Part shown: in pieces, positions 6,989 to 61,610 of the stretch
Layout of the letters: every line of letters begins with the position of its first letter
Position numbering within the stretch: the first letter of the stretch is position 1
Source of the DNA: Patescibacteria group bacterium
Lineage (GTDB): Bacteria; Patescibacteriota; Patescibacteriia; SG8-24
Assembly: GCA_041667185.1 (NCBI GenBank)
Contig: JBAYFM010000008.1
Location: forward strand, 1,714 to 65,713
Direction: 5' to 3'
Length of the DNA stretch: 64,000 nt
Made by a program: the position numbers and the translations under genes
The notes under the pieces: generated by a model
What the model was told of the DNA's origin: nothing
The model's database searches: none
The model's input: only the letters and a program-made list of their open reading frames with translations

Positions 6989-7416
6989 GGTTTGACGGGT
7001 ACATTCAGTACAAATAAAATGGACGAAATACTTGATCATTTTGGCGGACCCTTGGGCTCTTAGCTTAATGGGAAGCCGCGGTTGTGCGGCTTGCGCCGAG
7101 AGGTGGCGGCCTTAGCCGCGCATCTGTAGTGTTCAGTCGCTAGCGCGACTAAACTGCGTCATAGAGCACCCGGTTTGACGAGAACATTCAGAATAAATAA
7201 AACGAACGAGATCCTCGATAATTCTGGTGGACCTGGGCCTGTAGCTTAACGGGAAGCCGTGGTTGTGCGGCTTGCGCCGAGAGGTGGCGGCCTTAGCCGC
7301 GCATTCGTAGTGTTCAGTCGCTGGCGCGACTGAACCGCGTCGTAGAGCAGCCGTTTTGACGAGCACTTTCAGAAACTATAAAAGGACGAGATACTTGATC
7401 ATTTTGGCGGACCCTT
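6989..7416 (+). repeat. two tandem ~182-bp units, each carrying a 5' leader plus a tRNA-Ala 5' fragment interrupted by a 91-nt GC-rich hairpin insert (family-1 element)
   Basis: Units start at GGTTTGACG at 6989, 7172 and 7353. tRNA-Ala 5' fragment GGGCTCTTAGCTTAATGG at 7054-7071 (diverged copy 7235-7252). Inserts at 7072-7162 and 7253-7343 (GGAAGCCGCGGTTGTGCGGCTTGCGCCGAGAGGTGGCGGCCTTAGCCGCG...AGTCGCTAGCGCGACT...). The tRNA sequence then resumes with AGAGCACCCGGTTTG (7163-7177) and breaks in the anticodon loop. Confidence 0.85.
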
Positions 7417-7490
7417 GGGCTCTTAGCTTAATGGCAGAGCACCCGGTTTGCATCCGGGAGACGTGGGTTCGATTCCCACAGGGTCCACCA
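7417..7490 (+). tRNA. tRNA-Ala (anticodon UGC)
   Basis: Acceptor GGGCUCU/AGGGUCC with G3:U70. Anticodon loop UUUGCAU, T-loop UUCGAUU, encoded CCA. Cloverleaf folded by hand. Confidence 0.9.
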
Positions 7491-7492
7491 AA

Positions 7493-7987
7493 ATGATGAA
7501 GTGCATTATCAAGATCATGAATCCAAAGTCCAAAAAACTGACCTTCGATCTCCGCTCGACCTATCTCGCGGTCATCAGGAACAGCGTCGGAACCAAAATG
7601 TTCCGCAATTCCTGTGGACGCGCAGCCGGCCGAGCTGTTGATCTGACCCGGGGCGGGCGCTTGTCCTGCGCATTTTTCGTCACTTCGGTCCTGCGTATTT
7701 TCGGATTGATCAAAGAACAGCACACGACCGTTGGTGGCGCGGTCCGGGACCTGGAACAGAGCGGCTGGCGGCCAGTGAAGACGGCGCGGCCGGGCGACAT
7801 CCTGGTCTGGGAAGCGGTCGTCGGCCAGGACGGCAATCATGAACATATCGGATTTTTGATCGCGCCCGGCGTCGCGGTCAGCAACAGCACTCGCGCGCGC
7901 CTGCCGGCCGAACATCATTGGACCTACGGCGTCCGCGCCGGCAAGCCGGTCCGGCGCGTCATGACGATCTACCGCTGGAACTTCTAG
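7493..7987 (+). CDS. hypothetical protein (possible NlpC/P60- or CHAP-like Cys/His fold)
   Basis: Start MMKCIIKIMNPKSKK directly after the tRNA. Contains a ...NSCGRAAGRA... Cys and a later NHEHIGFL His arrangement. The antisense ORF 7376-8005 overlaps the tRNA and is rejected. Confidence 0.4.
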   Translation: MMKCIIKIMNPKSKKLTFDLRSTYLAVIRNSVGTKMFRNSCGRAAGRAVDLTRGGRLSCAFFVTSVLRIFGLIKEQHTTVGGAVRDLEQSGWRPVKTARPGDILVWEAVVGQDGNHEHIGFLIAPGVAVSNSTRARLPAEHHWTYGVRAGKPVRRVMTIYRWNF

Positions 7988-9281: not shown

Positions 9282-10262
9282 TCACTTCCACAGATCGATA
9301 CTGATCCGTTTCAGTACGCCGGCCGAAGGATAATTGTTGATGATGCCGCGCTTGGCGCCCATCTGTTGGATGACGCTGGAAGCGTTCCAGATACCGACGG
9401 CCAGGCCGTAGCGCAGGTCGTCTTTTTTCATCAGTCCGGCGACGAAACCCGAACCGAAAGCATCGCCAGCTCCTGTGACATTGAGGTGTTTGACGTTCAT
9501 GGCCGCGACGTGCCAGCTGTCTTTGTGGTTAGCTACGTAAGCGCCATTCTTGCCATCGGTGATCATGAGCGCCTGGCGCGGTAGGCCGCGGAGCGCGTCC
9601 CGGAGCGCGGCGATATCGCGATCGCGTCGTCCGGTGAGCAGCATCGCCTCCTCGACGTTCAGGTTGAAAACGTCGGTTTTGCGGATGAGCGGGGTCAGCC
9701 GGTCGAGGCCGTGCCGGAGTTCTTTGGTGCCGGGATTCCAGGCGACCTTGATGCCGTTCTTTTTGGCGAAGTTCAGTGTTTTTTCCATGAGCGCCAATTT
9801 GCCGCCGAGGGAGGTTATATAGAACCATTTGGCGCCGATGTACTGCCAAGGGATGAGTTTGGCCGAGATCATTTCCGAAGCGCCGCGATAGACAAGTACG
9901 GTCCGTTCGCCGGTGCCGGTCAGAATGATCGCTGAAAAAGCCGTCTGGTCGTCGCGATCGGTCTGCATGAAGCCGGTCGAGATCCGTTCCGAACGGAGCG
10001 TCTCGAGCACCGCCCGGCCGCCATCATCGTTGCCGACGGAACTCACGATCGCGGTGCTGTAGCCGAGGCGGCTGAAGGTCGTGGCCGCGTTAGTCGCGCC
10101 GCCGCCGGTCTCGAGCACCAGGTTGTTGATCTCGATCTTGGCGCCGAGCGGAAAGCAGCCCTCCATGGTGTGGGTCGCGTCGTCGCTCTCGATGATCTCG
10201 AGGGCGGAGCTTCTGATGAAGACATCGCGAGTGGCAGAGCCGAAAGTGATGACATCGTACAT
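9282..10262 (-). CDS. PfkB family carbohydrate/ribokinase-like kinase
   Basis: GGGATNAA N-terminal motif and C-terminal VTGAGDAFGSGFVAG (DTxGAGD). Start at MYDVITFGSATRD; the longer ORF N-terminus runs through a GGGAG-rich repeat and is rejected. Confidence 0.8.
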   Translation of the reverse strand: MYDVITFGSATRDVFIRSSALEIIESDDATHTMEGCFPLGAKIEINNLVLETGGGATNAATTFSRLGYSTAIVSSVGNDDGGRAVLETLRSERISTGFMQTDRDDQTAFSAIILTGTGERTVLVYRGASEMISAKLIPWQYIGAKWFYITSLGGKLALMEKTLNFAKKNGIKVAWNPGTKELRHGLDRLTPLIRKTDVFNLNVEEAMLLTGRRDRDIAALRDALRGLPRQALMITDGKNGAYVANHKDSWHVAAMNVKHLNVTGAGDAFGSGFVAGLMKKDDLRYGLAVGIWNASSVIQQMGAKRGIINNYPSAGVLKRISIDLWK

Positions 10263-10263
10263 A

Positions 10264-10340
10264 TGGTTGGAGTGGGGGAGTTGGGGAGTGGGGGAGTTGG
10301 GGAGACCGACTCTCCCGCACTTCTCCACTTCCGCACTCTC
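10264..10340. repeat. GGGAG-rich intergenic element (family instance a)
   Basis: GAGTGGGGGAGTTGGGGAG x2, then GACCGACTCTCCCGCACTTCTCCACTTCCGCACTCTC. On the mRNA strand it gives a pyrimidine-rich CTCCCCAACTCCC leader immediately 5' of the kinase start. Confidence 0.6.
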
Positions 10341-12270: not shown

Positions 12271-13152
12271 TTAAATGAGGTCGGAACCAGGCTTGGGTTT
12301 GGCCTGGTAAGGCTTGGCGGCGTCTTTTCGGAGTTCCGCGAGCGCCTGGTCAGCCTGCTCGCACGTCGGCGTTTCGCCATGCCAGTGGAAATCATCCTCC
12401 ATGAAACTGACGCCCTTGCCGAGAGTCGTTCGGGCGATGATCGCCGTCGGACGCTGGCGCGAAGTTTTCGCTGTTTCCAGCGCTTGGATGATCGAAGGCA
12501 GATCATGTCCGTCAACGTCGATCACGTTCCAATTGAAAGCGAGGTATTTCTCACGGAGCGGTTCGAGGCGCATGATCGTTTCAGTTTCGCCATCAAGTTG
12601 GATGCGGTTGCGGTCGACCACGCAGATCAGGTTATTCAGATTGTTGGCGCCGGCGAAAAGCACGGCTTCCCAGTGCAGGCCGGCGTCGTGTTCGCCATCC
12701 GAGGTTAGGCACCAAGTCGTCCAGGTTTTGCGGTCCATTTTGGCAGCCAGCGCCAGGCCGGCGGCTTGCGCCAGGCCGGCTCCGAGAGGACCGGAGGTGC
12801 TTTCGAGCCCTGGCAAGCGTTCGCGTTCCGGATGCCCCTGCAGCCGCGAACCCAGGCGCCGCAGGGTCAGGAGCTCGCGTTCGGGAAAATAACCGGCCAG
12901 CGCCATGGCCGCGTAGCGCGCCGGGCAGATGTGGCCGTTCGAAAGTATCAGGCGGTCGCGGTCCGGCCAGTCCGGTTTTTTCGGATCGTGTTTCAGGATG
13001 TGAAAATACAGGGCCGCGAAAATATCGGCCATGCCCAGGGATCCGCCGGGGTGGCCAGAGCCAGCCTCAGCCAGCATAGAGATCACCAACTGGCGGATGC
13101 GGCTGGCTTTTTGGCTTAATTCGACGATTTTTTTTTGGTTGGGAGAAGCCAT
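12271..13152 (-). CDS. transketolase, N-terminal (TPP-binding) subunit
   Basis: GSGHPGGSLGMADI, LSNGH and GPLGAGL motifs of the transketolase TPP-binding domain. Confidence 0.85.
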   Translation of the reverse strand: MASPNQKKIVELSQKASRIRQLVISMLAEAGSGHPGGSLGMADIFAALYFHILKHDPKKPDWPDRDRLILSNGHICPARYAAMALAGYFPERELLTLRRLGSRLQGHPERERLPGLESTSGPLGAGLAQAAGLALAAKMDRKTWTTWCLTSDGEHDAGLHWEAVLFAGANNLNNLICVVDRNRIQLDGETETIMRLEPLREKYLAFNWNVIDVDGHDLPSIIQALETAKTSRQRPTAIIARTTLGKGVSFMEDDFHWHGETPTCEQADQALAELRKDAAKPYQAKPKPGSDLI

Positions 13153-13258
13153 AACGGCCTTAATGCCGCTTAAATTATATCATTTTTCAGCGTTGCGGTA
13201 TAGCCGCCGCGCGGGTACAAAAAATCCCGCCGAGGCGGGCGTCGCGATATTTTCCGGA

Positions 13259-13471
13259 TCAGTCGAACTTTTTCTTATGGATATGTTTGGCGAGTTCGGC
13301 CCGCAGGAGTTCGGCCTGCTTCTCGTCTTCGCCGAGGATCTTTTCGAACAAGGCGATGCAATCCGGACAGTCCATCTCTTTGGCGTCCGCGCAGTAATGT
13401 TTTTCGATGCGCCAAGTGTCGTCGAGTTTCTGCAGCAGCATCTTCACCAGGTTGTAGTTGGCGTTTTTCAT
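13259..13471 (-). CDS. small hypothetical protein with C..C pair (70 aa)
   Basis: MKNANYNLVKMLLQKLDDTWRIEKHYCADAKEMDCPDC... Sits between tkt and rpe in the same orientation. Confidence 0.4.
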   Translation of the reverse strand: MKNANYNLVKMLLQKLDDTWRIEKHYCADAKEMDCPDCIALFEKILGEDEKQAELLRAELAKHIHKKKFD

Positions 13472-14118
13472 AGCTTTTGATTTTCCTGGACGATCCGTTT
13501 CAGTTCGGCGAGAGCGGCCGCGGGATCCGGGCTGTTGGTGAGCGCATTGGCCGCGACCAGGCAGTCGGCTCCGGCTCGGATGAGTTTGGGGGCTGTTTCG
13601 AGATTGACGCCGCCGTCAATGGAAATATTCAGGGCCGGACGGATGACTTTCAGAGCTTCGATCTTGTCGAGCGTGATCGGCAACATGGTTTGGCCGCTGG
13701 CTCCGGGGTTTACGCCCATGATCAGGACGTTCTTGATCTTGTCGAGCATCGGCGTGATCCGCGAGAGCGGCGTGTCGGGGTTGATGGCGATGCCGACCTT
13801 GCCGGATTCCTTGTCAGCTGAGCGCAGGATCAGCTCCTCGCGTTCGGTCGCTTCGATATGGAAAAAGACCCGCGCGGCGCCGGCTGCGAGCCAGACAATG
13901 GCCATGTGTTCCGGGTTGTCGACCATGAGGTGTGCTTCGAACGGGATTCCTTTGAGCAATCCAGGGATCTTTTCCGGGTCGGCCCAGGTGGTGTTCGGCA
14001 CGAAGCGGCCGTCCATGACGTCGATTTGGACCATGACTCCGAGCGGGCGGATCTTTTCGATCTTGGCGATGAATTCTTCCTCGGTCCGGGCGAGGATGGC
14101 GGGAATCACTTGCGGCAT
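13468..14118 (-). CDS. rpe: ribulose-phosphate 3-epimerase
   Basis: MPQVIPAILART...QIDVMDGRFVPN... Start at M50 of ORF 13468-14265; overlaps the rpiB stop by 13 nt. Confidence 0.85.
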   Translation of the reverse strand: MPQVIPAILARTEEEFIAKIEKIRPLGVMVQIDVMDGRFVPNTTWADPEKIPGLLKGIPFEAHLMVDNPEHMAIVWLAAGAARVFFHIEATEREELILRSADKESGKVGIAINPDTPLSRITPMLDKIKNVLIMGVNPGASGQTMLPITLDKIEALKVIRPALNISIDGGVNLETAPKLIRAGADCLVAANALTNSPDPAAALAELKRIVQENQKL

Positions 14119-14594
14119 AAGCAACGGCCGCGTTGTTCGTAGTCGTGGATCTGTTTCAGACGCCGGCGATGGCGCGCGGAATCGGAGAAAGACGTCGCCA
14201 GCCAGAGTCTGATCAGGCGCAGCGCTGTCGAGACGCGACCGCTCGGCGTGCGGGCGCCGAGGCACATCACGTTGGCGTCGTTGTGTTCGCGGGAGAATTT
14301 GGCCGAGTAGGCGTCATAGACCAGGGCGCCGCGGATGCCGGCCACCTTGCTCGCGGCCAGGCATTCGCCGATGCCGCTGCCGCCGAAGAAGATGCCGACG
14401 CTCTTGCCGCGGGACTTCGCCACGGCTTCGGCCGCTGGGATGATGAAGTCGGGATAATCGCTCGGTTCAGCGGAAAAAGCGCCTAAGTCGCGCACTTCGT
14501 GGCCCTGGCCGCGCAAAAAAACCACGACCGCTTCCTTGAGCTTGAAGCCGGCATGATCGCTGGCGAGATAGATCGTTCGTTTTTTGGCGGCCAT
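14106..14594 (-). CDS. rpiB: ribose-5-phosphate isomerase B
   Basis: RpiB/LacAB family: IYLASDHAGFKLKE..., CLGARTP. Confidence 0.85.
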   Translation of the reverse strand: MAAKKRTIYLASDHAGFKLKEAVVVFLRGQGHEVRDLGAFSAEPSDYPDFIIPAAEAVAKSRGKSVGIFFGGSGIGECLAASKVAGIRGALVYDAYSAKFSREHNDANVMCLGARTPSGRVSTALRLIRLWLATSFSDSARHRRRLKQIHDYEQRGRCLCRK

Positions 14595-14737
14595 GTCGAT
14601 GAGTCTTTAGCTGCTTCTATATTATAATTCTATCATAATCAGCCCGGGCGCGTCATTAAGCCGGTCTGACGGTAAAATTAGGCGCGCCCCGTCCGATGGT
14701 TTACTTTTATCCGATATCTGCTTATAATTGGCTTCAT

Positions 14738-17700
14738 ATGGCGAAATTTCATCTACCATCGATCGAAGAGGAGCAACTGAAAAAATGGGACGAAAAAGAC
14801 GTTTTCCGCCAGGTCCTGAACAAGCCGGACCAGGGAAAGTCGTTCGTTTTTTTCGAGGGGCCGCCAACGGCCAACGGCAAGCCGGGCATTCATCATGTGC
14901 TCGCGCGGTCGTTCAAGGACGTCATCCTGCGTTTCCGCACCATGCAGGGACACAAGATCGACCGCAAGGCCGGCTGGGACACGCATGGCCTGCCGGTCGA
15001 ACTCGAGGTCGAGAAACAGCTCGGATTCACGCAGAAGAAACAGATCGAGGAGTTCGGCATCGCCAACTTCAACGCCAAGTGCAAGGAGTCGGTCTGGAAG
15101 TATCTCGACATCTGGCAGCAGATGACGAAGCGCATCGCGTTCTGGGTCGATCTCGAACATCCCTACATCACTTACACCAACGATTACATCGAGTCGCTCT
15201 GGTCGATCATCAAGGAGATCGATCGCAAGGGTTTGTTGTACCAAGGTTATCGCGTGACGCCGCACTGCCCGCGCTGCGTGACTTCGCTGTCATCGCACGA
15301 GTTGGCGCAGGGCTACAAGGATGTCGACGATCAGTCGGTCTACGTGAAGTTTCCGATCGATGCTGCGGCCAAGCGCTACTTCCTCGTCTGGACCACGACG
15401 CCGTGGACGCTGCCGGGCAATGACGCTCTCGCTGTCGGCGCGGCCGTGACCTATGCCGAGGTGAAGATGAAAGCGACGGGCGAGACCTATATTTTGGCTA
15501 AAGACAGGCTTGTCAGTCTCGACGGCGAGTACGATATCTTGTCGGAAAAGACCGGGGAGCAGCTGGTCGGCATCGCGTACCAGCCGCTTTATGACACCGC
15601 CAAGGCGTTCACCGCGGCCGCTGAATCTTCACGTCTCGCGAACGCCTACAAAGTTTATGCGGCTGGTTTCGTTTCGACGACCGACGGCACCGGCATCGTC
15701 CACATCGCGCCGGCGTTCGGCGAGGATGACGCGCGTCTGGGCGAAGCGGCCAAGCTGCCGACTCTGCTCACGGTCGATTCGACCGGCATGATGCTGGCCG
15801 AGGCTCCGGGCAAAGGCAGGTTCATCAAGAAGGCCGACGAGGACGTCAAAGCTGATCTCACCGCGCGCGGCCTGCTTTACAAATCCGAGACCTATCGCCA
15901 CGCCTACCCGTTCTGCTGGCGCTGCGGCACGCCGCTCCTGTATTACGCCAAGAATTCCTGGTACATCCGGATGTCCGAGTTGCGCGAGAAACTGCAACAG
16001 CACAACCAGGCGATCAACTGGGTCCCGGATCACATCCGCGACGGCCGTTTCGGCGAGTGGCTGCGCGAGGTCAAGGATTGGGCGCTGTCCCGTGAGCGTT
16101 ATTGGGGGACGCCGCTGCCGATCTGGCGCTGCGAGTCGTGTCAGGAACGCCTGACCATCGGCGGCATGGAAGAGATGAAGAAGCTCGCGCGTCCGGGCAA
16201 TACTTATTATCTGCAGCGCCACGGCGAGGCCGAGAATAACGTTGCGAACGTGGTGAGCTCGTATCCGGAGCTTAAAGAATGGCATCTGACGGCTCAGGGA
16301 CGCGAACAGGTCCAGGTTGCCGCCAAGGAATTGAAGCAGCATGGCATCGATCTGATTTTCGCCTCCGACCTGCTGCGCACCAAAGAGACCGCCGAGATCA
16401 TCGCCGCGGAGCTTGGCTTGCCGGTCGTTTATGATCCGCGCCTGCGCGAGCTTGGCGTCGGCGAGGCCAACGGCAAAACCATCGCGGAATTCCACGCGCA
16501 ATTCGCGAGCAAACTGGAACGTTTCGACAAGCCGGCCGTCGGCGGCGAGAATCTGCGCGACTGCCGCCGTCGCTTGGTCGCGTTCGTCAAAGAACTGGAA
16601 GCGAAATATTCCGGCCAGCGAATCCTGATCGTGAGCCACGGCGATCCGATCTGGATGCTGGATTCCGGATTCGGCGGCGCGAGCGACGAAGAGACATTGA
16701 CGTGGCGGTATAACGCCGTCGGCGCGTTCAGCGAGTTCCGGCCGGATGGCCTGCCGCGCGACGATCAGGGCCGCATCGATCTGCACCGCCCCTATGTCGA
16801 TGAGGCGGCGCTCGCGTGTCCCAAATGTTCTGGCGCCATGAAACGGTCGACCGAGGTTCTCGATTGCTGGTTCGACTCGGGCGCCATGCCGTTCGCGCAA
16901 TGGCACTACCCCTTCGAGAACGCCGAACGCATCGACCAGGGCCGGAATTTCCCAGCCGACTACATCTCCGAAGCCATCGATCAGACCCGCGGCTGGTTCT
17001 ACACCCTCCTCGCGGTCTCGACCCTGCTCGACAAGCCGACGCCGCCCTACAAGAACGTCATCTGCCTCGGCCACGTGCTCGATGCCAAAGGCCAGAAGAT
17101 GTCCAAGTCCAAGGGCAATGTCGTCGATCCCTGGCTGATGATCTCCAAGTACGGCGCCGACGCCATCCGTTATCATTTCTTCACCGTGAACCAGCCGGGC
17201 GAACCGAAATGTTTCGACGAGAAGTCGCTCGACGAGGTGACGAAGAAAGTTTTCCTGATCCTCTGGAACGTCCTGACTTTCTGGCAGATGTATGCCGGGG
17301 AGAAAGCGCGTGCGACCGACGCATCGCCGGCTTCGCAGAACGAACTCGACCGCTGGATCCTGGCGGAACTGGCCGAACTCGGCTCGCAGCTCACCGGACG
17401 ACTGGAGAGTTACCAGGTCGTCGACGCCTGCCGCAGCCTGGGCGACTTCATCAACAGCCTGTCCACCTGGTACCTGCGCCGCAGCCGCGACCGTTTCAAG
17501 GGCGAGCCGACGGAGCGCCAGGCAGCCGTAGAAACGCTGGGTTACGTGCTTTTGACGCTGTCTCGGCTCATGGCGCCGTTCACGCCGTTCTTGGCCGAGG
17601 CACTGTACGCCGAGGTTGGCGGGCCGCTGGCTTCGGTCCACTTGGACGCGTGGCCGACGCTGAAGTCGCTTGAAGACGCGACCTTGCGCACCAAGATGGA

Positions 17701-18187
17701 GTTCGTGCGCCAGGCCGCTTCGCTCGGACTCGAGAAGCGCGCTGTCGCCGGCATTCCGGTGCGCCAGGCACTCGCCAAAGCGACGGTCCGTTCGGTCCAG
17801 GTTTTCGACCAGTGGATGAAAGAGATCGTGGCCGTGGAACTCAACGTCGAAGCGGTCGAGTCCGAGGTGATCAAGGAGGCGAAAGATGCCGCGGTCGAAC
17901 TCGACACCAACATCACGCCGGAACTCCGCCGCAAAGGCGCGGTCCGCGAACTCGTCCGCAACATCAACGACCTGCGCAAGACCGCTGGACTCACGGTGCA
18001 TGATCGCATCGTCTTGAATTGGAATGCCACCGGCGAATTCTGGCCGCAGGTCTTTGCCGAACATCGCGAGAGCTTGCTCAAAGACGTGCTGGCCGCGGAT
18101 ATCGCGGTCGGTTCCTCTGGCGAACTCGGCAACCGCGAGCTCGAGGTCGCCGGCGAGAAGGTCTGGCTCGGCATCAATAAAGTCTGA
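14738..18187 (+). CDS. ileS: isoleucyl-tRNA synthetase (type 2) with an inserted histidine-phosphatase (PGAM-like) domain
   Basis: EGPPTANGKPGIHH (HIGH class I), KMSKSKGN, editing/CP1 region, Zn knuckles CESC...CPKC. About 190 aa between the knuckles (nt ~16195-16775) carry RHGEAE, SDLLRTKETA and IVSHGD motifs of the histidine phosphatase superfamily. Start at MAKFHLPS (14738), with TATAAT 8 nt upstream. Confidence 0.9.
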   Translation: MAKFHLPSIEEEQLKKWDEKDVFRQVLNKPDQGKSFVFFEGPPTANGKPGIHHVLARSFKDVILRFRTMQGHKIDRKAGWDTHGLPVELEVEKQLGFTQKKQIEEFGIANFNAKCKESVWKYLDIWQQMTKRIAFWVDLEHPYITYTNDYIESLWSIIKEIDRKGLLYQGYRVTPHCPRCVTSLSSHELAQGYKDVDDQSVYVKFPIDAAAKRYFLVWTTTPWTLPGNDALAVGAAVTYAEVKMKATGETYILAKDRLVSLDGEYDILSEKTGEQLVGIAYQPLYDTAKAFTAAAESSRLANAYKVYAAGFVSTTDGTGIVHIAPAFGEDDARLGEAAKLPTLLTVDSTGMMLAEAPGKGRFIKKADEDVKADLTARGLLYKSETYRHAYPFCWRCGTPLLYYAKNSWYIRMSELREKLQQHNQAINWVPDHIRDGRFGEWLREVKDWALSRERYWGTPLPIWRCESCQERLTIGGMEEMKKLARPGNTYYLQRHGEAENNVANVVSSYPELKEWHLTAQGREQVQVAAKELKQHGIDLIFASDLLRTKETAEIIAAELGLPVVYDPRLRELGVGEANGKTIAEFHAQFASKLERFDKPAVGGENLRDCRRRLVAFVKELEAKYSGQRILIVSHGDPIWMLDSGFGGASDEETLTWRYNAVGAFSEFRPDGLPRDDQGRIDLHRPYVDEAALACPKCSGAMKRSTEVLDCWFDSGAMPFAQWHYPFENAERIDQGRNFPADYISEAIDQTRGWFYTLLAVSTLLDKPTPPYKNVICLGHVLDAKGQKMSKSKGNVVDPWLMISKYGADAIRYHFFTVNQPGEPKCFDEKSLDEVTKKVFLILWNVLTFWQMYAGEKARATDASPASQNELDRWILAELAELGSQLTGRLESYQVVDACRSLGDFINSLSTWYLRRSRDRFKGEPTERQAAVETLGYVLLTLSRLMAPFTPFLAEALYAEVGGPLASVHLDAWPTLKSLEDATLRTKMEFVRQAASLGLEKRAVAGIPVRQALAKATVRSVQVFDQWMKEIVAVELNVEAVESEVIKEAKDAAVELDTNITPELRRKGAVRELVRNINDLRKTAGLTVHDRIVLNWNATGEFWPQVFAEHRESLLKDVLAADIAVGSSGELGNRELEVAGEKVWLGINKV

Positions 18188-18300
18188 TAGGCTGAAGGAG
18201 TAGCGGAGTCAGGGAGAGACGGAGTCATGGAAGAACATCGATTCTCCCGCACTCTCACAAACTCCCTGACTCCGTCTCTCCCCAACTCCCATACTTCCGT
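18188..18300. repeat. GGGAG-rich inverted-repeat intergenic element (instance b)
   Basis: GGAGTCAGGGAGAGACGGAGTCA ... CTCCCTGACTCCGTCTCTCCCCAACTCCCA immediately 5' of the ruvA ATG. Confidence 0.65.
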
Positions 18301-18858
18301 ATGCTCATCACCATCACCGGCAAGATCACTCATAAGGGCGGCGATTTCGTCGTGGTCGAGGCTGGCGGTTTGGGTTATCAGGTCTATCTGGCCGCCGCCG
18401 CTTTGGAGAAAGCTAAAGTCGGAGCGAAAGCGGATTACTGGACGTACGAACATCTCCGCGAGGATGCCCACGACCTTTATGGTTTTCAGGATCGGCAGGA
18501 GTTGGCCATGTTCCATAAATTAGTCGCCGTTTCCGGCGTCGGTCCGAGAATGGCTTTGAATATCCTGGCGCTCGGCGCGATCACGGAAATCGAGCGGCTG
18601 ATCGAACGCGGCGACATCGACATGTTGTCGCGCGTGCCGCGCGTCGGCCGCAAGACCGCGCAGAAGATCGTGCTGGAACTCAAGGGCAAGCTCGTGGAAG
18701 CCGGCCGCGGCGACGTGGAAGACGAGGTGTTGACAGCGCTCGTGAATCTCGGTTATAGCCGGGAGCAAGCTCGCGAAGCGGTCAATCGCGTGTCCGCCGA
18801 TGAAGCGACGGTCGAGGGGCGGCTGCGCGCGGCGCTCCGCGGACTCGGCAAGAAGTGA
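18301..18858 (+). CDS. ruvA: Holliday junction DNA helicase RuvA
   Basis: MLITITGKI...VVVEAGGLGYQV... N-terminal OB domain, HhH motifs (GVGPRMALNIL), C-terminal domain. Confidence 0.9.
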   Translation: MLITITGKITHKGGDFVVVEAGGLGYQVYLAAAALEKAKVGAKADYWTYEHLREDAHDLYGFQDRQELAMFHKLVAVSGVGPRMALNILALGAITEIERLIERGDIDMLSRVPRVGRKTAQKIVLELKGKLVEAGRGDVEDEVLTALVNLGYSREQAREAVNRVSADEATVEGRLRAALRGLGKK

Positions 18859-18861
18859 GCG

Positions 18862-19938
18862 TTGATTGTGCCGATGCTCGCTGCGCGCAATGAGGGATCC
18901 TGGGACGCTTTCGTTCAGGCGAACGGCGGATGTTTTCTGCAATCCTGGGGCTGGTCCAGGTTCCAGGAAGCCGCCGGCCGGACCGCTTTCCGCTATCAGA
19001 TCGCCGAGCCTTCGGCGACCGGTTCTCCCGACGATGGCGAAACCTCGGTCCAGTTCTTGGTGCTCCGCCACGCGCTGCCGCTGGGCGCGGCTTATGCTTA
19101 TGTTCCGCGCGGCCCAGTGCTAGCGCGTGAAGGCGTTTTCGATCTCGGTCGTTTCGGTTCGTTCGTCGGCGCCTTGCGCGAAGCGGCTCAGCGCGAAGGT
19201 TGCATCTTCGCCCGCGTCGAGCTGCCGTATCCGCAGACCGGCGGTCCGGTCAGTATTCCCGAACTGGAGAGTCTGGGTTTCCGTTACGCCAAGTCGCTCC
19301 AGCCAGCGGATACTTCTATCGTCGATCTTGATCTGAGCGAGGAGGAATTGCTCGCGGCCATGCATCCGAAGACGCGTTATAATATCCGTCTCGCCGCGAA
19401 ACACGGGGTCGAGGTGCGCGAGGCTGTTCATGAGAACGCTCATGTCTTTCGCCAGGAGGTCGGAACATTCTGGCGTCTGCTCGCCGAAACTTCGGAGCGC
19501 GACAAGTTCCACACCCACTCGCAGGCTTATTACGAGACCATGCTCGACGTCCTGTCGCCGAAAAAAGACGGCGGCCTCAAGGTGCGGCTGGTCTTCGCAT
19601 TATATAAAGGAGAGCCGGCCGCCGCGGCGATCGTCGCTGAATACGGCGATACCGTGACTTATCTGCACGGCGCCTCTTCCAGCCGGCTGCGCCAGTACAT
19701 GGCGCCGTACCTGCTGCACTGGAAGCTGATCCAGGAAGCCAAGGCCCGCGGATTCGCCAAATACGACTTTTGGGGCGTGGCGCCGACGGACGATCCGGAG
19801 CATCCCTGGGCCGGCATCACCCGGTTCAAGCGCGGCTTCGGCGGCCGTCGTGAGTCGTATCTGGGAGCCTGGGAGTTGCCGATAAGCGGACTTTGGTATA
19901 ATCTCTATCGGTTCGCGAAGAGATTCAAGAACGTTTGA
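18862..19938 (+). CDS. FemAB-family peptidoglycan interpeptide-bridge aminoacyltransferase (FemX-like)
   Basis: Methicillin-resistance FemAB family features: FLQSWGW, YLHGASS..., KRGFGG at C-terminus. Confidence 0.75.
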   Translation: MIVPMLAARNEGSWDAFVQANGGCFLQSWGWSRFQEAAGRTAFRYQIAEPSATGSPDDGETSVQFLVLRHALPLGAAYAYVPRGPVLAREGVFDLGRFGSFVGALREAAQREGCIFARVELPYPQTGGPVSIPELESLGFRYAKSLQPADTSIVDLDLSEEELLAAMHPKTRYNIRLAAKHGVEVREAVHENAHVFRQEVGTFWRLLAETSERDKFHTHSQAYYETMLDVLSPKKDGGLKVRLVFALYKGEPAAAAIVAEYGDTVTYLHGASSSRLRQYMAPYLLHWKLIQEAKARGFAKYDFWGVAPTDDPEHPWAGITRFKRGFGGRRESYLGAWELPISGLWYNLYRFAKRFKNV

Positions 19939-19973
19939 CAAATAAGTGGCGGGGCATCCGTCATTTCAGATCC

Positions 19974-20260
19974 GTGCGCCCGTAGTACAACGGATAAGCC
20001 CGCTTGATATAATAAGGAAAAGATATGCGGGCTTGCGGCCAGAGGTGGCGGCCTTAGCCGCGTGTCTATAATGTCCGATTGCTGCGCAACCGGACTGAGC
20101 CTAAGCCCGCTTGATATAATAAGGAAAAGATATGCGGGCTTGCGGCCAGAGGTGGCGGCCTTAGCCGCGTGTCTATAATGTCCGATTGCTGCGCAACCGG
20201 ACTGAGCCGTAGAATGCGATCTTTAAAACCCCATCAGTAGACGGAAGTCGTCGATTTTTT
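19974..20260 (+). repeat. tRNA-Arg 5' fragment (acceptor to D-loop), two tandem family-1 hairpin elements (R1, R2), then a short tRNA fragment
   Basis: GTGCGCCCGTAGTACAACGGATA (19974-19996) matches the tRNA-Arg 5' end. R1 19997-20103 and R2 20104-20210 are near-identical (AGCCCGC-ATrich loop-GCGGGCT, TGCGGCCAGAGGTGGCGGCCTTAGCCGCG, GTCCGATTGCTGCGCAACCGGAC). AGAATGCGA (20211-20219) is the tRNA D-stem 3' / anticodon-stem 5' side. Confidence 0.85.
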
Positions 20261-20262
20261 GT

Positions 20263-20337
20263 GCGCCCGTAGTTCAACGGATAGAATGCGAGCCTCCGAA
20301 GCTTGAGATCTAAGTTCGATTCTTAGCGGGCGCACCA
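20263..20337 (+). tRNA. tRNA-Arg (anticodon CCG)
   Basis: Acceptor GCGCCCG/CGGGCGC, anticodon loop CUCCGAA, T-loop UUCGAUU, discriminator A, CCA encoded. Confidence 0.9.
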
Positions 20338-20344
20338 CTAAAGG

Positions 20345-20368
20345 ACAGCATCACGAATGCTGTTTTTT
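20345..20368 (+). terminator. rho-independent terminator after tRNA-Arg
   Basis: ACAGCATCACGAATGCTGT hairpin followed by TTTTTT. Confidence 0.7.
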
Positions 20369-20423
20369 AGTTTCCCGCCTTTGGCGGGACCCCGCCTTCC
20401 TCGAAGTAAATATAAGTGGCGGG

Positions 20424-20733
20424 GCAACGGATAAGCCCGCCCCGCACTTCGTGCGGGGACCAGGGCGGGCTTGCGGCCAGAGGTGGCGGCCTCCGCCGCG
20501 TGTTCTTTGTGTCCGGTCGCTGCGCAACCGGACTGGGCCTAAGCCCGCTTGATATAATAAGGAAAAGATATGCGGGCTTGCGGCCAAAAGTAGCGGCCTT
20601 AGCCGCGTGTCCATAATATCCGGTCGTTTAGCGACCGGACTGGGCCATAGAATGCGAGCCTCCGAAGCTTGAGATCCAAGTTCGATTCTTTGCCACCCGC
20701 AGCTTTGGCGGAGGGTGGTTAGCGGGCGCACCA
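20424..20733 (+). pseudogene. disrupted tRNA-Arg copy: D-loop fragment, two family-1 elements (R3, R4), tRNA 3' part with a 28-nt hairpin in the T-stem; no 5' acceptor strand
   Basis: CAACGGATA (20424-20432); R3 20433-20540 (variant with inner hairpin CCCCGCACTTCGTGCGGGG); R4 20541-20646; AGAATGCGAGCCTCCGAAGCTTGAGATCCAAGTTCGATTCTT (20647-20690); 28-nt hairpin TGCCACCCGCAGCTTTGGCGGAGGGTGG (20691-20718); TAGCGGGCGCACCA (20719-20733). Confidence 0.75.
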
Positions 20734-20861
20734 CCCCACGTCGCTCAAACTGCGGTTTGAGCTATGTGGGGTTGTAAGTATTGTTCTGACAGTCACGGAG
20801 ACTATAAAAGAAAAAACAGCGGCCACAAGGCTGCTGTTTTAGTTTGATTTGATCTCGTCGG

Positions 20862-30335: not shown

Positions 30336-30474
30336 GCGCTAGCGATCGATCCGACACGAACGGCAGAGCCGGGGTCAGACCCCCGGTTTTTTGTCGCAAC
30401 CAAGCCCTTGCCCGTACGTCGGCGATGTGTTAAGAAAATCGTGTTCTTTCACAAAACTTCCAAGGAGTGCCGTG

Positions 30475-31992
30475 ATGGCCAAACAGAATATCGGCTCGCT
30501 CTACCGTAAATTCGTGGCCCAGCTTCGGGAGATCGCCCTGCTCGCCTCCGCGAACAATATCGCGGAATACGACATGGAGGTCTTCATGCCTCCGGCCGGT
30601 GCAGATCACCGGTCCGACGTCATGGCGCTGATCGCCGGGATCGTCCATACGAAGCGGACCTCGGCGGCGTTGTGGCGACGGGGCGAAAAATTGCTCGCGG
30701 CCGTCGAGAACGGCCTGCTCAGCGAGACGGAAGCGATCATCGTCCGCCGCACCATGAAGGATCTTGAGCGCGAACGCAAACTTCCGAAGCGCCTGGTCGA
30801 GGAGCTGGTCAAGACCACCGGAGCCGCGCACCATGTCTGGATCGAGGCGCGCGAGAAGTCGGATTTCTCGCTGTTCCTGCCGTCGCTTCAGAGGATCGTC
30901 GAACTGAAGATCGAGGAAGCCGAAGCGGTCGGCTGCGGCGGATCGCCTTACGACGCCCTGCTCGGCCAGTACGAGCCGGGTATGACCGCCGAAATGGTCG
31001 AGGCCGTCCTCAGTCCGCTCTGCGACTTCCTCAAAGTGTTCGTGCGGCGGCTCGGAACCGGCAACGCCCCCAAGGAGCTGAAGATCCGTCTGACGGCCAA
31101 ACATCAGGCTCGGATCTCCAAGGATCTGGCGAAGCTCATCGGCTTCGATTTTCGCGCCGGCCGCTTGGACGCGAGCGCTCACCCGTTCACTTCCAAAATG
31201 CATCCGGGCGATGTCCGCATCACCACGCGCTACGATGAAAGCGACCTGCTTTCGTCGATTTACAGCACGATCCACGAGACCGGCCATGCGCTTTATGATC
31301 ACGCTTTGCCGTCCGATCAGTTCGGCAATTGCGCCGGCGAAGCGGCCTCGTACGGCATCCACGAGTCGCAATCGCGGCTGTGGGAGAATCTGATCGGTCG
31401 CAGCCGCGAGTTCTCGAGATTGCTGGCGGCGTTCATGACCGGGTCCGGCGAGGATTACGAGCTCTGTCTTCCGGATGAGGACAGTTTCTATCGCGCGCTC
31501 AACGTCGTGAAGCCGTCGCTCATCCGCACCGAGTCCGACGAGGTCACTTACAACCTCCATGTCGCCCTGCGGTTCGAGATCGAACGCGGTCTCATCGAAG
31601 GCCGGATCGCGGCCAAGGATCTGCCGGAGATCTGGAACGCCAAGATTCGCGAGTATCTCGGCGTCGAAGTGCCGAGCGACAGCGTCGGCGTCCTGCAGGA
31701 CGTTCATTGGTCGGCGGGACTCTTCGGTTATTTCCCGAGTTACGCGCTCGGCAATCTCTACTCCGCTCAGCTGCTCGAGGCTGCGGTGCGCGAGTTGCCG
31801 GATCTGTGGTTGCGCGCCAACGGCGAACAATTCACCTGGTTGCGCCTCTGGTTGTACGACAAAGTTTGGCGTCATGGCGGACTGCTGATGCCGGTCGAGA
31901 TCGTGACCCAAGCCACGGGCGCTCCGCCATCGGCTGACGCTTTCCAGCGCTATCTGGAGCGCAAATTCATTGAGATCTATCAGCTGAAGTAA
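30475..31992 (+). CDS. carboxypeptidase Taq-like (M32) metallocarboxypeptidase
   Basis: HETGHALY (HExxH), ...DVRITTRY..., IRTESDEVTY motifs of the M32 family. AAGGAG SD 7 nt upstream of ATG 30475. Confidence 0.85.
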   Translation: MAKQNIGSLYRKFVAQLREIALLASANNIAEYDMEVFMPPAGADHRSDVMALIAGIVHTKRTSAALWRRGEKLLAAVENGLLSETEAIIVRRTMKDLERERKLPKRLVEELVKTTGAAHHVWIEAREKSDFSLFLPSLQRIVELKIEEAEAVGCGGSPYDALLGQYEPGMTAEMVEAVLSPLCDFLKVFVRRLGTGNAPKELKIRLTAKHQARISKDLAKLIGFDFRAGRLDASAHPFTSKMHPGDVRITTRYDESDLLSSIYSTIHETGHALYDHALPSDQFGNCAGEAASYGIHESQSRLWENLIGRSREFSRLLAAFMTGSGEDYELCLPDEDSFYRALNVVKPSLIRTESDEVTYNLHVALRFEIERGLIEGRIAAKDLPEIWNAKIREYLGVEVPSDSVGVLQDVHWSAGLFGYFPSYALGNLYSAQLLEAAVRELPDLWLRANGEQFTWLRLWLYDKVWRHGGLLMPVEIVTQATGAPPSADAFQRYLERKFIEIYQLK

Positions 31993-32000
31993 AACTTGAC

Positions 32001-32030
32001 CCCCTCTTTCGGGAGGGGGTTTTTCTTTGC
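32001..32030 (+). terminator. rho-independent terminator
   Basis: CCCCCTCTTTCGGGAGGGGG followed by TTTTTCTTT. Confidence 0.75.
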
Positions 32031-32099
32031 GCCGCCGCGGCATTTCAGAAATCGCGGACCACAAAGTTATTCGTTTCAATGAACGGCGGGGTCCCGCCC

Positions 32100-32230
32100 G
32101 GAGGCGGGAGAACCGGAGTATATTCCGCGGCCTATGATGCAGTCTGACCGCGAAGCGGGCGGACAGTTACAAATTCGCGGCTAAGGCCGCCACTTCTCGG
32201 CGCAACCCGCATGACCGCGGGTTACAAAAA
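32100..32230 (-). repeat. orphan copy of the family-1 GC-rich hairpin element (minus-strand orientation)
   Basis: Reverse complement reads TAACCCGCGGTCATGCGGGTTGCGCCGAGAAGTGGCGGCCTTAGCCGCGAATTTGTAACTGTCCGCCCGCTTCGCGGTCAGACTGCATCAT. This is collinear with the tRNA-Ala inserts (core TGCGCCGAGA[G/A]GTGGCGGCCTTAGCCGCG identical). The neighbouring TCTCCCGCCTCCGGGCGGGACCCCGCC is also shared with 20371-20400. Confidence 0.8.
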
Positions 32231-36521: not shown

Positions 36522-36678
36522 AGGCGTGGGAGTGTTTACCTATATTAGAGCGAATGGCGATTTGAGGCAATATGGCGGAAATAAGCCCGAAACGGCTGCC
36601 CAAAAAGACGCAAACGCCGCGTCCTCGTCTGGGGACTTCGCGGTCCGGCAGCCCCGTATTTTTAGGCGTTAAAGATCA

Positions 36679-36707
36679 TTGACAAAATAGCGTTTTTGCG
36701 CTAGGTT
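36679..36707 (+). promoter_or_regulatory. putative sigma70-type promoter of paralog A (duplicated at 37931-37959)
   Basis: TTGACA (36679-36684), 17-nt spacer, TAGGTT (36702-36707). The same TTGACAAAAT context is duplicated upstream of paralog B. Confidence 0.4.
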
Positions 36708-36795
36708 TTCAGCACAAGTGTTCTTTTTATGGCAGGCCTCAAGTATGCCTAATGACAGGCGTACAGGGGGTAAGCCAAAAACAAGGAGTCAGGTC

Positions 36796-37809: not shown

Positions 37810-38047
37810 CTCTCGAATCCTTTCGGCCCATACCACGTCGTGGTGCGGGCCGATTTTTTTATACTGATGTTTGCGGCTAAGACGACAACCGGCGGCTACG
37901 GCTGCGGACAGTAGAGTCTGGAAAAGATCATTGACAAAATCGCCTATTTATGCGATTGTTTCGGCACAAGTGTTCTTTTCATGACAGTCCCTAGGTTCGT
38001 CTGATGTCAGACGTATAAGGGGTAAACCATAAACAAGGAGTCAGGTC

Positions 38048-39371: not shown

Positions 39372-39377
39372 AGAAAA

Positions 39378-42253: not shown

Positions 42254-42284
42254 ATGATATCCAGTATAGATTATGAGACGGTAA

Positions 42285-42430
42285 AAGTGTAGGAGAGTGC
42301 AGGAGTGGGGGAGTGAGGGAGAGACGGAGTCAGGAAGTGGTGGAGAGACGGAGTGGCGGAGTCAGAGAATTACGAAAAAGCGGGGATTGATGTCCCCGCT
42401 TTTTACTTCTTGATGACTCCGTCTCTTCGT
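42285..42430. repeat. GGGAG-rich inverted-repeat element flanking a bidirectional terminator (instance d)
   Basis: Left arm GGAGAGTGCAGGAGTGGGGGAGTGAGGGAGAGACGGAGTCAGGAAGTGGTGGAGAGACGGAGTGGCGGAGTCAG. Centre AAAAAGCGGGGATTGATGTCCCCGCTTTTT (terminator for rnj). Right arm TGACTCCGTCTCTTCGTCTCTCCCTGACTTC. Confidence 0.7.
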
Positions 42431-42443
42431 CTCTCCCTGACTT

Positions 42444-45117: not shown

Positions 45118-45159
45118 TTTTGTCCGTATAATATGCCTGATTTTGGCTGATTTGTCAAG

Positions 45160-61436: not shown

Positions 61437-61610
61437 GGTGGGCGGCAGAGGAGTCGAACCTCTGACCTTCACAATGTCAATGTGACGCTCTAACGCCCAG
61501 TCCGGTCGTCTTGCGACCGGACACAAGAAATGCGCGGCGGCGGCCGCCACATCTGGCGTCAAGCCCGCCCTGGTCCCCGCGTTCGCGCGGGGCGGGCTTA
61601 ACCAACTGAG
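61437..61610 (-). pseudogene. partial tRNA-Val copy (D-loop to CCA) carrying a 105-nt family-1 element in the D-loop; no 5' acceptor strand
   Basis: In tRNA orientation: CTCAGTTGGTTA, family-1 element (plus-strand 61494-61598; AGCCCGCCCCGCGCGAACGCGGGGACCAGGGCGGGCT TGACGCCAGATGTGGCGGCCGCCGCCGCG...GTCCGGTCGCAAGACGACCGGAC), then TTAGAGCGTCACATTGACATTGTGAAGGTCAGAGGTTCGACTCCTCTGCCGCCCACCA, identical to the intact gene. Confidence 0.8.

Follow-up and report, generated by a model that had tools for sequence, protein, structure and literature searches.

A small folded repeat at the D-loop of truncated transfer RNA gene copies in Patescibacteria

How does a bacterial genome come to hold an intact transfer RNA (tRNA) gene between two broken copies of itself, and what are the folded repeats that the broken copies carry? 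The question is raised by the tRNA-Arg(CCG) locus in a 64-kb stretch of a Patescibacteria group bacterium (contig JBAYFM010000008.1; hereafter the window, i.e., the whole stretch that was analysed, with 59.7% G+C and six tRNA calls by ARAGORN). An original prediction, made from the sequence letters, had placed an intact tRNA-Arg gene between a 5′ fragment and a disrupted copy; in these two copies together, the D-loop was said to carry, at its 3′ end, four elements that belong to one family. ARAGORN, Rfam and BLAST bore out this arrangement, and a covariance model matched all four elements (R1 to R4). The folded repeat, about 107 nucleotides (nt) long with a unit range of 86–109 nt, is called E in the following. 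Our favoured reading, to which we give an even chance, sees in E a protein-less selfish repeat, specific for one site and one orientation, that survives only in redundant tRNA copies.

E is a family of well-defined copies in the window. A 21-nt core pattern matched eight times against 0.08 matches expected, and the covariance model, searched without filters, returned exactly eight copies at an E-value of 1e-8 or better and no further copy in the window below an E-value of 0.1. The Arg locus holds four of the eight and 5′ fragments of tRNA-Ala hold two; of the other two, one lies in a tRNA-Val copy and one stands alone (Table 1). With Rfam 15, only tRNA (gathering score 29 bits) and RNase P were found above gathering scores in the window, and no family was found for E; over positions 19900–20850 at an E-value of up to 10, E gave chance-level matches only, with no Intron_gpI and no ribozyme. 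A scan of a genome collection for E returned four loci, two of which are chance matches in Proteobacteria coding DNA (L001, L002), and a scan of a metagenome collection returned one contig (L005). The other two of the four genome loci belong to the Patescibacteria metagenome-assembled genome (MAG) STA_55 (L003, L004). A scan of viral contigs gave only two chance matches in coding sequence (L006, L007), i.e., no sign of phage-borne E. FemAB homologues put the window itself in Patescibacteria, close to genomes labelled Uhrbacteria or Parcubacteria, and the family is restricted to a clade of Patescibacteria (Uhrbacteria-like).

On the tRNA-sense strand, the predicted fold of E opens with a 5′ hairpin (HP1), whose stem is AAGCCGCG/UGCGGCUU or AAGCCCGC/GCGGGCUU and whose loop is short, AT-rich, or replaced by a nested GC hairpin, and continues with a three-way junction. 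In order, HP1 is followed by the closing helix P2, a near-invariant arm, a short joining strand, a variable hairpin (HP3) and a tail that ends in TA. The near-invariant arm reads AGAGGUG-G-CGGC-CUUA-GCCG-CGYRUYU (core GAGRUG-G-CGGC-CUUA-GCCG-CGYRU), and about 25 nt of this core, including nucleotides predicted to be unpaired, are invariant between the window and STA_55, which are distant genomes. Pairing was scored over 13 distinct copies from six sources. Standard pairs fill 87.6% of the pair cells, as compared with 33–41% when the partners are slid by 1–3 columns; both sides have changed in 15 of 34 pairs, and the observed score was reached by none of 500 shuffles. The alignment was fitted to the model and therefore favours the structure, yet the covariation in HP1, P2 and HP3 is visible by eye in the raw sequences. 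Covariation thus backs the predicted fold of a hairpin plus a three-way junction.

Several other features of these sequences were considered and rejected. RNAalifold proposed an alternative helix between the 3′ strands of hairpin 1 and of the core, but the covarying w32k and Arg-type hairpin-1 sequences favour hairpin 1. A short open reading frame (ORF) in the core (GTG GCG GCC TTA GCC ...) keeps neither stop nor frame across copies, and the Shine–Dalgarno-like AGAGGUG varies between G and U at its fifth position. The termini of E form no terminal inverted repeats: the 16-nt ends match at 5–10 of 16 positions at best when ungapped, with inconsistent pairing. E is therefore not a classical miniature inverted-repeat transposable element. 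HP1 lies at the 5′ end and HP3 9–12 nt before the 3′ end, and the two hairpins are not alike.

The position of E is as regular as its fold. Seven of the eight window copies sit between tRNA positions 21 (D-loop) and 22 (D-stem), all in tRNA sense, so the insertion position predicted to be shared with tRNA-Ala and tRNA-Val is indeed the same. The 21/22 site and the sense orientation also hold for every E in L003 (Lys, three tandem units), L004 (Ala CGC), L005 (Ala UGC), and the Arg loci of L009/L010 and L011/L012. E occurs singly or as head-to-tail arrays of two or three units. A TA precedes every tRNA-associated E and forms its last two bases, and tandem units abut at TA; with slashes marking the boundaries, the junctions read GGATA/E/E..TA/GAAT for Arg, GGTTA/E..TA/GAGC for Val, GGTA/E/E/E..TA/GAGC for Lys (L003) and GGTA/E..TA/GAGC for Ala (L004, L005). 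The final TA may just as well belong to E as its 3′ end, and a different insert at 21/22, in L017, has no second TA.

A third regularity concerns the host copies. When each intact tRNA was compared by BLAST with its own locus, the E-bearing tRNA copies all proved truncated or damaged, and each adjoined an intact gene without E in the same transcription unit. This combination of an incomplete E-bearing copy and an intact neighbour held for all seven tRNA-associated loci seen (the two Arg copies, Ala and Val in the window, Lys in L003, Ala in L004, and Arg in L011/L012). In STA_55, for example, a 5′ fragment of tRNA-Lys(CUU) carries three tandem E, a 5′ fragment of tRNA-Ala(CGC) carries one, and the intact gene comes after the fragment in both cases. 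A functional tRNA has both acceptor strands and four arms, which none of the Arg copies 1 (stops at 29) and 3 (starts at 14), nor the Ala, Val, Lys and L011 copies, possesses. Two architectures were distinguished. In the 5′ type (Arg copy 1 and both Ala copies in the window, L003 Lys, L004 Ala, L009 Arg), a promoter or leader is followed by tRNA positions 1–21, one or more E, tRNA positions 22 to about 29–35, a spacer and the intact gene. In the 3′ type (Arg copy 3 and Val in the window, L011/L012 Arg), the intact gene and its terminator are followed by a few D-arm nucleotides, one or more E, tRNA positions 22–76 and a second terminator or hairpin. Both can be written as an insertion at 21/22 with E at one end and a restoring tRNA part at the other, i.e., as c/E-a-b-c/a′ and c/a′-t-c″-E/a′. 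At the Arg, Leu and Lys loci, the space before the live gene is too short for a separate promoter, and the 3′-type copies lie behind terminators with no recognisable promoter.

The E-bearing truncated copies also appear in tRNA annotation. ARAGORN calls some of them as extra tRNA-Val or tRNA-Arg genes (window 61436–61511 on the minus strand, L011 11321–11393, L012 3777–3849) by borrowing part of E as a pseudo-acceptor strand, and the Val call is only a 30.7-bit partial Rfam match. These are likely false tRNA calls in MAG annotation. The idea, prompted by these ARAGORN calls, that E itself supplies the missing 5′ acceptor strand was rejected, the pairings being 4–6 of 7 and inconsistent between Arg, Val, Ala and Lys, as was a permuted tRNA, there being no 5′ part after the CCA of the truncated copies.

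Under the favoured reading of a selfish repeat, E would be, or would recently have been, a non-autonomous mobile element whose target is the conserved D-arm sequence. Insertions into the sole working gene would be purged, and E would for this reason persist only in redundant copies. Such copies may arise by tandem duplication or by Campbell-type recombination with an E-bearing allele; once dead, they would decay by deletion and collect more hairpin inserts, and gene conversion would keep the tRNA parts, and likewise the E units, close in sequence to their relatives. The fragment and its E would be transcribed within the leader of the precursor tRNA (5′ type) or within a read-through trailer (3′ type), and would be cut away as the live tRNA matures, without splicing.

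The anatomy of the Arg locus is given in Table 1. The details predicted for it held with small corrections. The upstream fragment does run from the tRNA 5′ end to the D-loop, except that its leading GT belongs to the leader; R1 and R2 are tandem as described, R2 measuring 108 rather than 107 nt; the downstream array does start in the D-loop, without the C that had been included and that belongs to the preceding module; and the T-stem hairpin is present, with a length of 29 and not 28 nt. As predicted, the downstream copy comprises the D-stem 3′ strand through the T-loop (positions 22–62) and the acceptor 3′ strand with CCA (the last 14 nt), and lacks the 5′ acceptor strand; it also lacks the 5′ strand of the D-stem. 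The nested GC hairpin that replaces the AT-rich loop in R3 was seen as well, with AT-rich loops in R1, R2 and R4.

Table 1. Features of the tRNA-Arg locus and the other copies of E in the window
Feature	Position	Strand	Observation
Leader before the 5′ fragment	19935..19975	+	Starts with a -35-like TTGACA
Copy 1, tRNA-Arg positions 1–21 (acceptor 5′ strand, D-stem 5′ strand, D-loop), GCGCCCGTAGTACAACGGATA	19976..19996	+	BLAST 95% over 21 nt
R1, 107 nt, AT-rich loop in hairpin 1, TA at end	19997..20103	+	Covariance model 73 bits; also in L008
R2, 108 nt	20104..20211	+	Covariance model 76.6 bits
Copy 1, tRNA positions 22–29, GAATGCGA	20212..20219	+	tRNA homology stops here; divergence beyond
43-nt linker	20220..20262	+	Weak 5-bp hairpin and T6 (20240–20260), terminator-like, stopping 2 nt short of the intact gene
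Intact tRNA-Arg(CCG), CCA encoded, presumably functional	20263..20337	+	ARAGORN; Rfam tRNA 65.7 bits against a cut-off of 29
Intrinsic terminator of intact tRNA-Arg, ACAGCAT-CACGA-ATGCTGT then T6	20345..20368	+	Read from sequence
Module M2, hairpin CCCGCC/GGCGGG then stem CCCCGCC...GGCGGGG	20371..20425	+	Fold -27.8 kcal/mol
Copy 3, D-loop fragment AACGGATA, tRNA positions 14–21	20426..20433	+	Sequence comparison
R3, nested GC hairpin inside hairpin 1	20434..20541	+	Covariance model 57.7 bits
R4	20542..20649	+	Covariance model 62.7 bits
Copy 3, tRNA positions 22–62	20650..20690	+	97.7% identity over 44 nt
GC hairpin insert of 29 nt in the 3′ strand of the T-stem of copy 3	20691..20719	+	Fold -16.4 kcal/mol
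Copy 3 end (T-stem end, acceptor 3′ strand, discriminator base, CCA), TAGCGGGCGCACCA	20720..20733	+	100% identity over 15 nt
Hairpin H directly after the CCA of copy 3	20734..20771	+	Fold -27 kcal/mol
E in first 5′ fragment of tRNA-Ala(UGC)	7073..7163	+	92 bits
E in second 5′ fragment of tRNA-Ala	7254..7344	+	91.3 bits; ortholog in L005, 90% identity
Stand-alone E after the terminator of a protein gene	32133..32223	-	77.4 bits
E in 5′-truncated tRNA-Val copy, downstream of intact tRNA-Val	61491..61599	-	67.5 bits

The leader of copy 1 is orthologous to the native leader that stands directly before the intact tRNA-Arg gene in relatives (..GGCGGGGAC..TCATTCAAAA..) and is 76% identical to that of L009; no consensus promoter scored in it. 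Thus, the E-bearing fragment occupies the ancestral position and the live gene lies behind a new linker, which is 65% identical to its counterpart in L009 (the neutral rate) and whose hairpin is missing there. Copy 1 differs from the intact gene by a single mismatch (T12>A) that disrupts one D-stem pair. R1 and R2 are identical across 105 nt. R3 is of a subtype shared with the tRNA-Val element, and R4 equals R1/R2 in its initial 45 nt and has a degraded P3 arm. Copy 3 retains the ancestral C50, whereas the live tRNA-Arg now has T50 (CCAAG/CTTGG in relatives), and M2 stands in the place of its tRNA 5′ end. M2 itself also occurs directly before AACGGATA in L017, and a related copy lies at window positions of about 32040–32100. 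In that second region (32040–32132, minus strand), the stand-alone E is followed by TA and GGCCGCGGAATATACTCCGG, resembling the start of a second E, and then by an M2-like module (TCCCGCCTCCGGGCGGGACCCCGCC...) just upstream of the gene at 30430–32079. Hairpin H has a homologue at 44580–44617, after the CCA of a 3′ tRNA-Leu copy; both are 38-nt perfect stems (CCCCACGTCGCTCAAAC...GTTTGAGCTATGTGGGG), and no further copy exists in the window.

The comparison of Arg loci that the original prediction had proposed was carried out over nine lineages, with FemAB as the anchor, and showed E to be patchy, i.e., present, replaced or absent. In L009/L010 (FemAB 90% identical to the window), the 5′ fragment has the identical break point, TAGAATGCGA/TCTTT, but carries one E instead of the two in the window, and the downstream copy is mostly deleted in this closest relative, leaving a remnant of TTCAACGGATA and 35 nt of an R3-like E. 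In L011/L012 (68%), there is no upstream fragment and a 3′-type copy carries one E; its tRNA part equals the live gene (L011) or is 1 nt off (L012), and the terminator has diverged. In L017 (64%), M2 is joined to AACGGATA, an unrelated GC-rich insert of about 130 nt lies exactly at 21/22, and tRNA positions 22–76, identical to the live gene of that genome, follow; the insert (L017 2030–2280) consists of two units of CCCGCCCAAAG...CATTGTGGCGGGC in a 5′-truncated tRNA-Arg copy. E and this unrelated insert therefore use one junction in different lineages. The remaining five lineages (L013/L014, L016, L019, L020 and L022; FemAB about 62–65%) have a single tRNA-Arg and no fragments. These states are interspersed on a rough FemAB tree, from which it follows that the arrangement is dispensable and has repeatedly been gained, lost or exchanged. 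Within one genome, a live gene and its fragment share lineage-specific substitutions, which indicates gene conversion.

The E copies nevertheless evolve more slowly than neutral DNA. Between the window and L009, orthologous E are 83% identical, as compared with 63% at the four-fold degenerate sites of FemAB and RuvA (P = 3e-6), and the linker (65%) and the trailer (58%) of the Arg locus follow the neutral level; the differences within E lie in loops or are compensatory. In the Ala unit, E is 90% identical between the window and L005, and its tRNA-derived flanks are 94% identical even though they are 5–7 positions off the live Ala genes; the neutral baseline for this pair assumes that L005 comes from the organism of L009/L010 (same sample), an assumption that is unverified. 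At the same time, parts of E change wholesale. L011 and L012 are 99.5–100% identical in three flanking genes, yet the nested hairpin in HP1 has been swapped between them (GTCAGCCC-TTCG-GGCTGAC vs. GTCCGCC-TGCG-GCGGAC), which strengthens the modular variation of hairpin 1 that had been predicted from R3. The tRNA leader has also been replaced between these two genomes, by a 95-nt GC-rich insert. Likewise, the first 45 nt of R4 equal R1/R2, while the L009 ortholog of R1 differs there. The E family therefore joins constraint on its fold with fast modular exchange. A GC-rich, GCGAG-rich insert of about 95–125 nt, missing in L011, was noted in the tRNA-Arg leader or an equivalent place in L012 (3444–3569) and L015 (11083–11194).

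How does the selfish reading compare with small repeats already described? ERIC, Correia (CREE) and RUP are non-coding elements of about 100–150 nt with many copies per genome in transcribed intergenic DNA, where their RNA folds matter; they are imperfect palindromes with terminal inverted repeats, inserted in either orientation at many unrelated sites. Orthologous ERIC copies are reported to be more conserved than neutral DNA, and Correia elements have TA at their insertion junctions. E is likewise small, non-coding and multi-copy, with TA at its junctions and with orthologs conserved above the neutral level. However, it lacks terminal inverted repeats, folds as a hairpin plus three-way junction, and lies at nearly only one tRNA nucleotide position, always in sense. 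The palindrome-associated elements derived from IS200/IS605, and the REP/RAYT system, are strand-specific, have subterminal hairpins, produce no real target duplication and can form arrays. E may resemble them in its strand-specific insertion after a short ..TA with no real target duplication, in having hairpins instead of terminal inverted repeats, and in forming arrays. In contrast, no TnpA/RAYT or TnpB was found in the roughly 80 kb examined, the end hairpins of E are unrelated to each other, E is most conserved centrally rather than terminally, and its target is effectively a whole tRNA D-arm rather than a 4–5-nt motif.

Several observations weigh against a purely selfish E. A Pfam scan of about 40 window ORFs and 10 ORFs adjoining the STA_55 elements in L003 and L004 found no domain of a transposase, an integrase, an HUH nuclease, an IS110-type recombinase or a reverse transcriptase in the roughly 80 kb examined, which is little of each genome. 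Neither an empty partial copy nor an E within a gene that was otherwise complete was observed, so insertion as an event, and with it the putative mobility of E, is inferred from distribution rather than caught in the act. Terminal inverted repeats are missing, as described above, and the excess of G-U pairs (35) over A-C mismatches (21) within E is moderate and does not separate folding as RNA from folding as single-stranded DNA. Conservation above the neutral level is unexpected for a purely selfish, dead insertion and calls for family-level selection plus gene conversion, or for a host function; the Ala fragment flanks, conserved between two genomes and unlike the live gene, pose the same difficulty. 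Finally, direct repeats that recombination could collapse have been kept across lineages about 65% identical in FemAB, which is easier to understand with some benefit.

The conservation data lead to the rival that stands up best, which we consider appreciable but still tentative, namely that the E-bearing fragments are RNAs that benefit the host, with E as a three-way junction that binds a protein or a ligand and is expressed from strong tRNA promoters. The flanking D-stem clamp and the live tRNA would give such an RNA defined ends through RNase P and RNase Z, making it a natural 'tRNA-scaffolded' or spacer-derived small RNA, and the spread among tRNA loci would be secondary. A precedent in logic is 3′ETS-leuZ of E. 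coli, a structured sponge RNA released from a tRNA precursor on maturation, although the E. coli spacers are unique sequences and E is a multi-copy family inserted in tRNA gene fragments. The slow and compensatory change of E, its invariant core with unpaired nucleotides, the conserved Ala flanks, the constant sense orientation inside tRNA transcription units, and the retention of E in very small genomes would all fit a host function. However, the orthologous Arg locus lacks E in five of nine lineages and has an unrelated insert in a sixth, tandem arrays differ in copy number (1, 2, 3), R4 has a degraded arm and the downstream copy is deleted in L009. In addition, the 3′-type copies stand behind terminators without a recognisable promoter, and neither an Rfam family nor a known motif matches E. 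The host-function and selfish readings are not mutually exclusive.

Less probable, in our estimate an unlikely outcome, is the reading of E as an insertion module of a new kind, protein-less and self-restoring, that enters the tRNA D-arm at 21/22, and/or as a new conserved class of three-way-junction RNA, derived from tRNA precursors, with a cellular role. Such a module might enter as a folded single strand handled by a host or element enzyme, or by an activity of the E RNA itself, and might bring the tRNA segment that rebuilds a working gene. By analogy, the tRNA 'genes in pieces' beside an intact copy could be a bacterial counterpart of processes proposed for archaeal split and intron-rich tRNA genes. 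E is a small non-coding repeat that lacks a match in Rfam and in the literature searched, and the chance that it is something categorically new is real but a minority one.

A further alternative, which we hold to be improbable, treats the partial tRNA copies as attachment-site (att) scars of miniature integrative elements. A recombinase would insert a small circle, with E by the crossover site as the structured arm site of the recombinase and a replacement tRNA segment on the other side, and the live gene would be regenerated as with genomic islands that target tRNA genes. Both architectures fit an insertion at 21/22 with E at one end and a restoring tRNA part at the other, and a partial direct repeat of a tRNA beside an intact regenerated gene is what att remnants look like. 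In line with this, Arg copy 1 holds the ancestral leader while the live gene lies behind a novel 43-nt linker, the Ala fragment resembles a tRNA-Ala allele other than the resident gene, the identical junction is used by different inserts in the window and L017, and other partial 3′ copies begin in the T-loop, a classical integrase sublocation. However, no integrase or recombinase gene was found by Pfam in the scanned ORFs in or near any locus, where only terminators and hairpin modules lie between the repeats, and the 'elements' would be cargo-free and only 150–350 nt long. The crossover of known tRNA integrases lies in the anticodon loop, the T-loop or the 3′ end, and what they duplicate is the 3′ part, whereas the E loci include duplications of the 5′ half and break at 21/22. 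Moreover, plain homologous recombination or tandem duplication yields the same products.

The original prediction had also raised a splicing-like processing of E-containing precursors to mature tRNA. In this alternative, E is an intron-like intervening sequence removed by self-cleavage and ligation, or by an endonuclease and an RtcB-type ligase, perhaps joining fragments as in split tRNAs. The non-canonical tRNA introns of Thermoproteales are short inserts at the D- or T-loop of many tRNAs that bear evidence of spread between genes, and the split tRNAs of Nanoarchaeum are encoded in pieces. E is also short, non-coding, placed in the D-loop and distributed among several tRNAs, its position lies in a fixed and structurally permissive variable pocket of the D-loop, its orientation is always sense with a conserved fold, and the window Arg locus has both 5′ and 3′ fragments. 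However, the archaeal inserts lie in complete, sole-copy genes, are bounded by a bulge–helix–bulge motif and are removed by an endonuclease, whereas the hosts of E are bacterial, incomplete and redundant. No bulge–helix–bulge could be drawn at the E junctions, either in single-unit folds or in the reconstructed full-length precursor: the 5′ junction is where HP1 starts, the 3′ junction is where P2 ends, and there is no 4-bp helix between two 3-nt bulges. Genes for the splicing endonuclease (EndA) and for a ligase were likewise not found among the ORFs scanned in 64 kb of genome.

Within the same phylum, self-splicing group I introns of the anticodon loop, together with a single group II intron in the D-loop, have been reported in tRNAs (PMC13011429). 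Intervening sequences are thus tolerated in tRNA genes of reduced genomes, a point in favour of an intron-like E. The group I introns, however, are Rfam-detectable ribozymes in the anticodon loop of complete genes (PMC13011429), whereas E, at 86–109 nt, is far below group I size (about 200 nt or more), has no group I core (P3–P8) and sits at 21/22 of truncated copies. Splicing is very unlikely because E-bearing copies are damaged or truncated in all the loci seen (in copy 3 the T-stem is broken, in copy 1 a D-stem pair is mismatched), the intact neighbour is constant, and no group I or bulge–helix–bulge feature is present. A split tRNA formed by copies 1 and 3 through E was rejected on similar grounds, since the E units of both halves are same-sense rather than complementary, the 3′ part is gone from L009, and the locus has an intact gene. 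Full-text literature searches turned up the paper on group I introns as the only related report and gave no description of E, of D-loop hairpin elements or of tRNA fragments in Patescibacteria.

That the locus is an assembly artefact, i.e., a single repeat collapsed or expanded, or a chimeric joining of different loci, is scarcely credible: R1 and R2 are identical across most of their length, and an independent JGI short-read contig (L008) ends 20 nt into R2, so the number of identical R1/R2 units is uncertain because short-read assemblers break at such repeats, but this contig is 100% identical to window positions 12450–20123 including the fragment–R1–R2 junction, the orthologous locus with the same break point was assembled from ENA and JGI samples (L009, L010), the same architecture recurs in NCBI MAGs of other projects (L003, L004, L011, L012), and R3 and R4 are distinct both from R1/R2 and from one another, which makes the downstream array unique sequence.

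Other inserts accompany tRNA genes in these genomes. At tRNA-Leu(CAG) (44765–44850, minus strand; region 44618–45095), a near-full-length upstream copy (positions 1 to about 70) carries two inserts of about 90 nt that belong to another GC-rich hairpin family; the first follows G10 and the second lies in the T-loop. The gap between this copy and the live gene is only 12 nt, and the live gene must therefore be co-transcribed from the promoter at about 45153. A downstream copy (positions 67–86; 44618–44637) is preceded by a GC-rich insert that begins with an inverted T-loop piece, GGAGTCGAA. The same design was seen in STA_55 (L003 6204–6362, L004 5565–5700), where an inverted T-arm piece (GGCTGGGATTCGAAC or CCTGGAGGGAATCGAAC, respectively) is followed by a GC-rich stretch of about 125 nt, in which motifs are shared (CCCCGGAC, GCGAG), and then by a copy of a tRNA 3′ end. 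The downstream Leu insert and the STA_55 inserts constitute a second element family, tied to the T-loop. A module of about 110 nt in tRNA trailers, CACGTAAAAA-hairpin-TTTTTACGTG ... CACGTGGCGCAGCCA, was found at L003 6085–6195 and 6362–6475, L004 5329–5560, L017 1891–2005 and window positions of about 56640–56727; it sometimes occurs in tandem, and its copies all end in the manner of a tRNA 3′ end (..GCCA).

The leader of the live tRNA-Ala gene, CTTGATCATTTTGGCGGACCCT (7396–7416), is complementary at 20 of 22 positions to the acceptor 3′ strand, CCA and trailer (7480–7503), a feature conserved in L005; the predicted helix would compete with the acceptor stem. RNase P RNA (38821–39372; class A, 148 bits) measures 552 nt against a model of 367 positions, with inserts of about 55, 60 and 86 nt. 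It was considered as a carrier of E-type inserts and rejected, the extra length being due to peripheral helix expansions with no copy of E. Elsewhere in the window, arrays of period 8 nt (GGAGTnnn) each have an inverted counterpart (nnnACTCC) at a distance of a few nt (10261–10313, 18179–18297, 42268–42452, 45156–45285, 63130–63170 and 63743–63904); they are intergenic and lie by promoters, e.g., just upstream of the TTGACA of the tRNA-Leu unit. A 65-nt tandem duplication with a GC hairpin (82% identity) lies at 2354–2483, and a 286-nt duplication (36671–36956 and 37923–38208, 1.25 kb apart, 86% identity) spans the promoter and 5′ end of two neighbouring ORFs without a Pfam match.

If the selfish reading is true, E would be a new family among the few small non-coding repeats of bacteria, and an unusual one in keeping to a single tRNA nucleotide position and a single orientation, with no inverted repeats and no enzyme gene nearby. 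For annotation, it would mean that E-bearing fragments called as tRNA inflate the tRNA counts of MAGs, and that the repeats break short-read contigs at tRNA loci, as in L008. The conserved three-way junction would be a testable candidate for a structured RNA, or for the recognition site of a recombinase. Even Patescibacteria genomes of about 1 Mb would hold dynamic 'junkyards' of tRNA fragments around live genes, and such junkyards would bear on the origin of split, permuted and intron-bearing tRNA genes.

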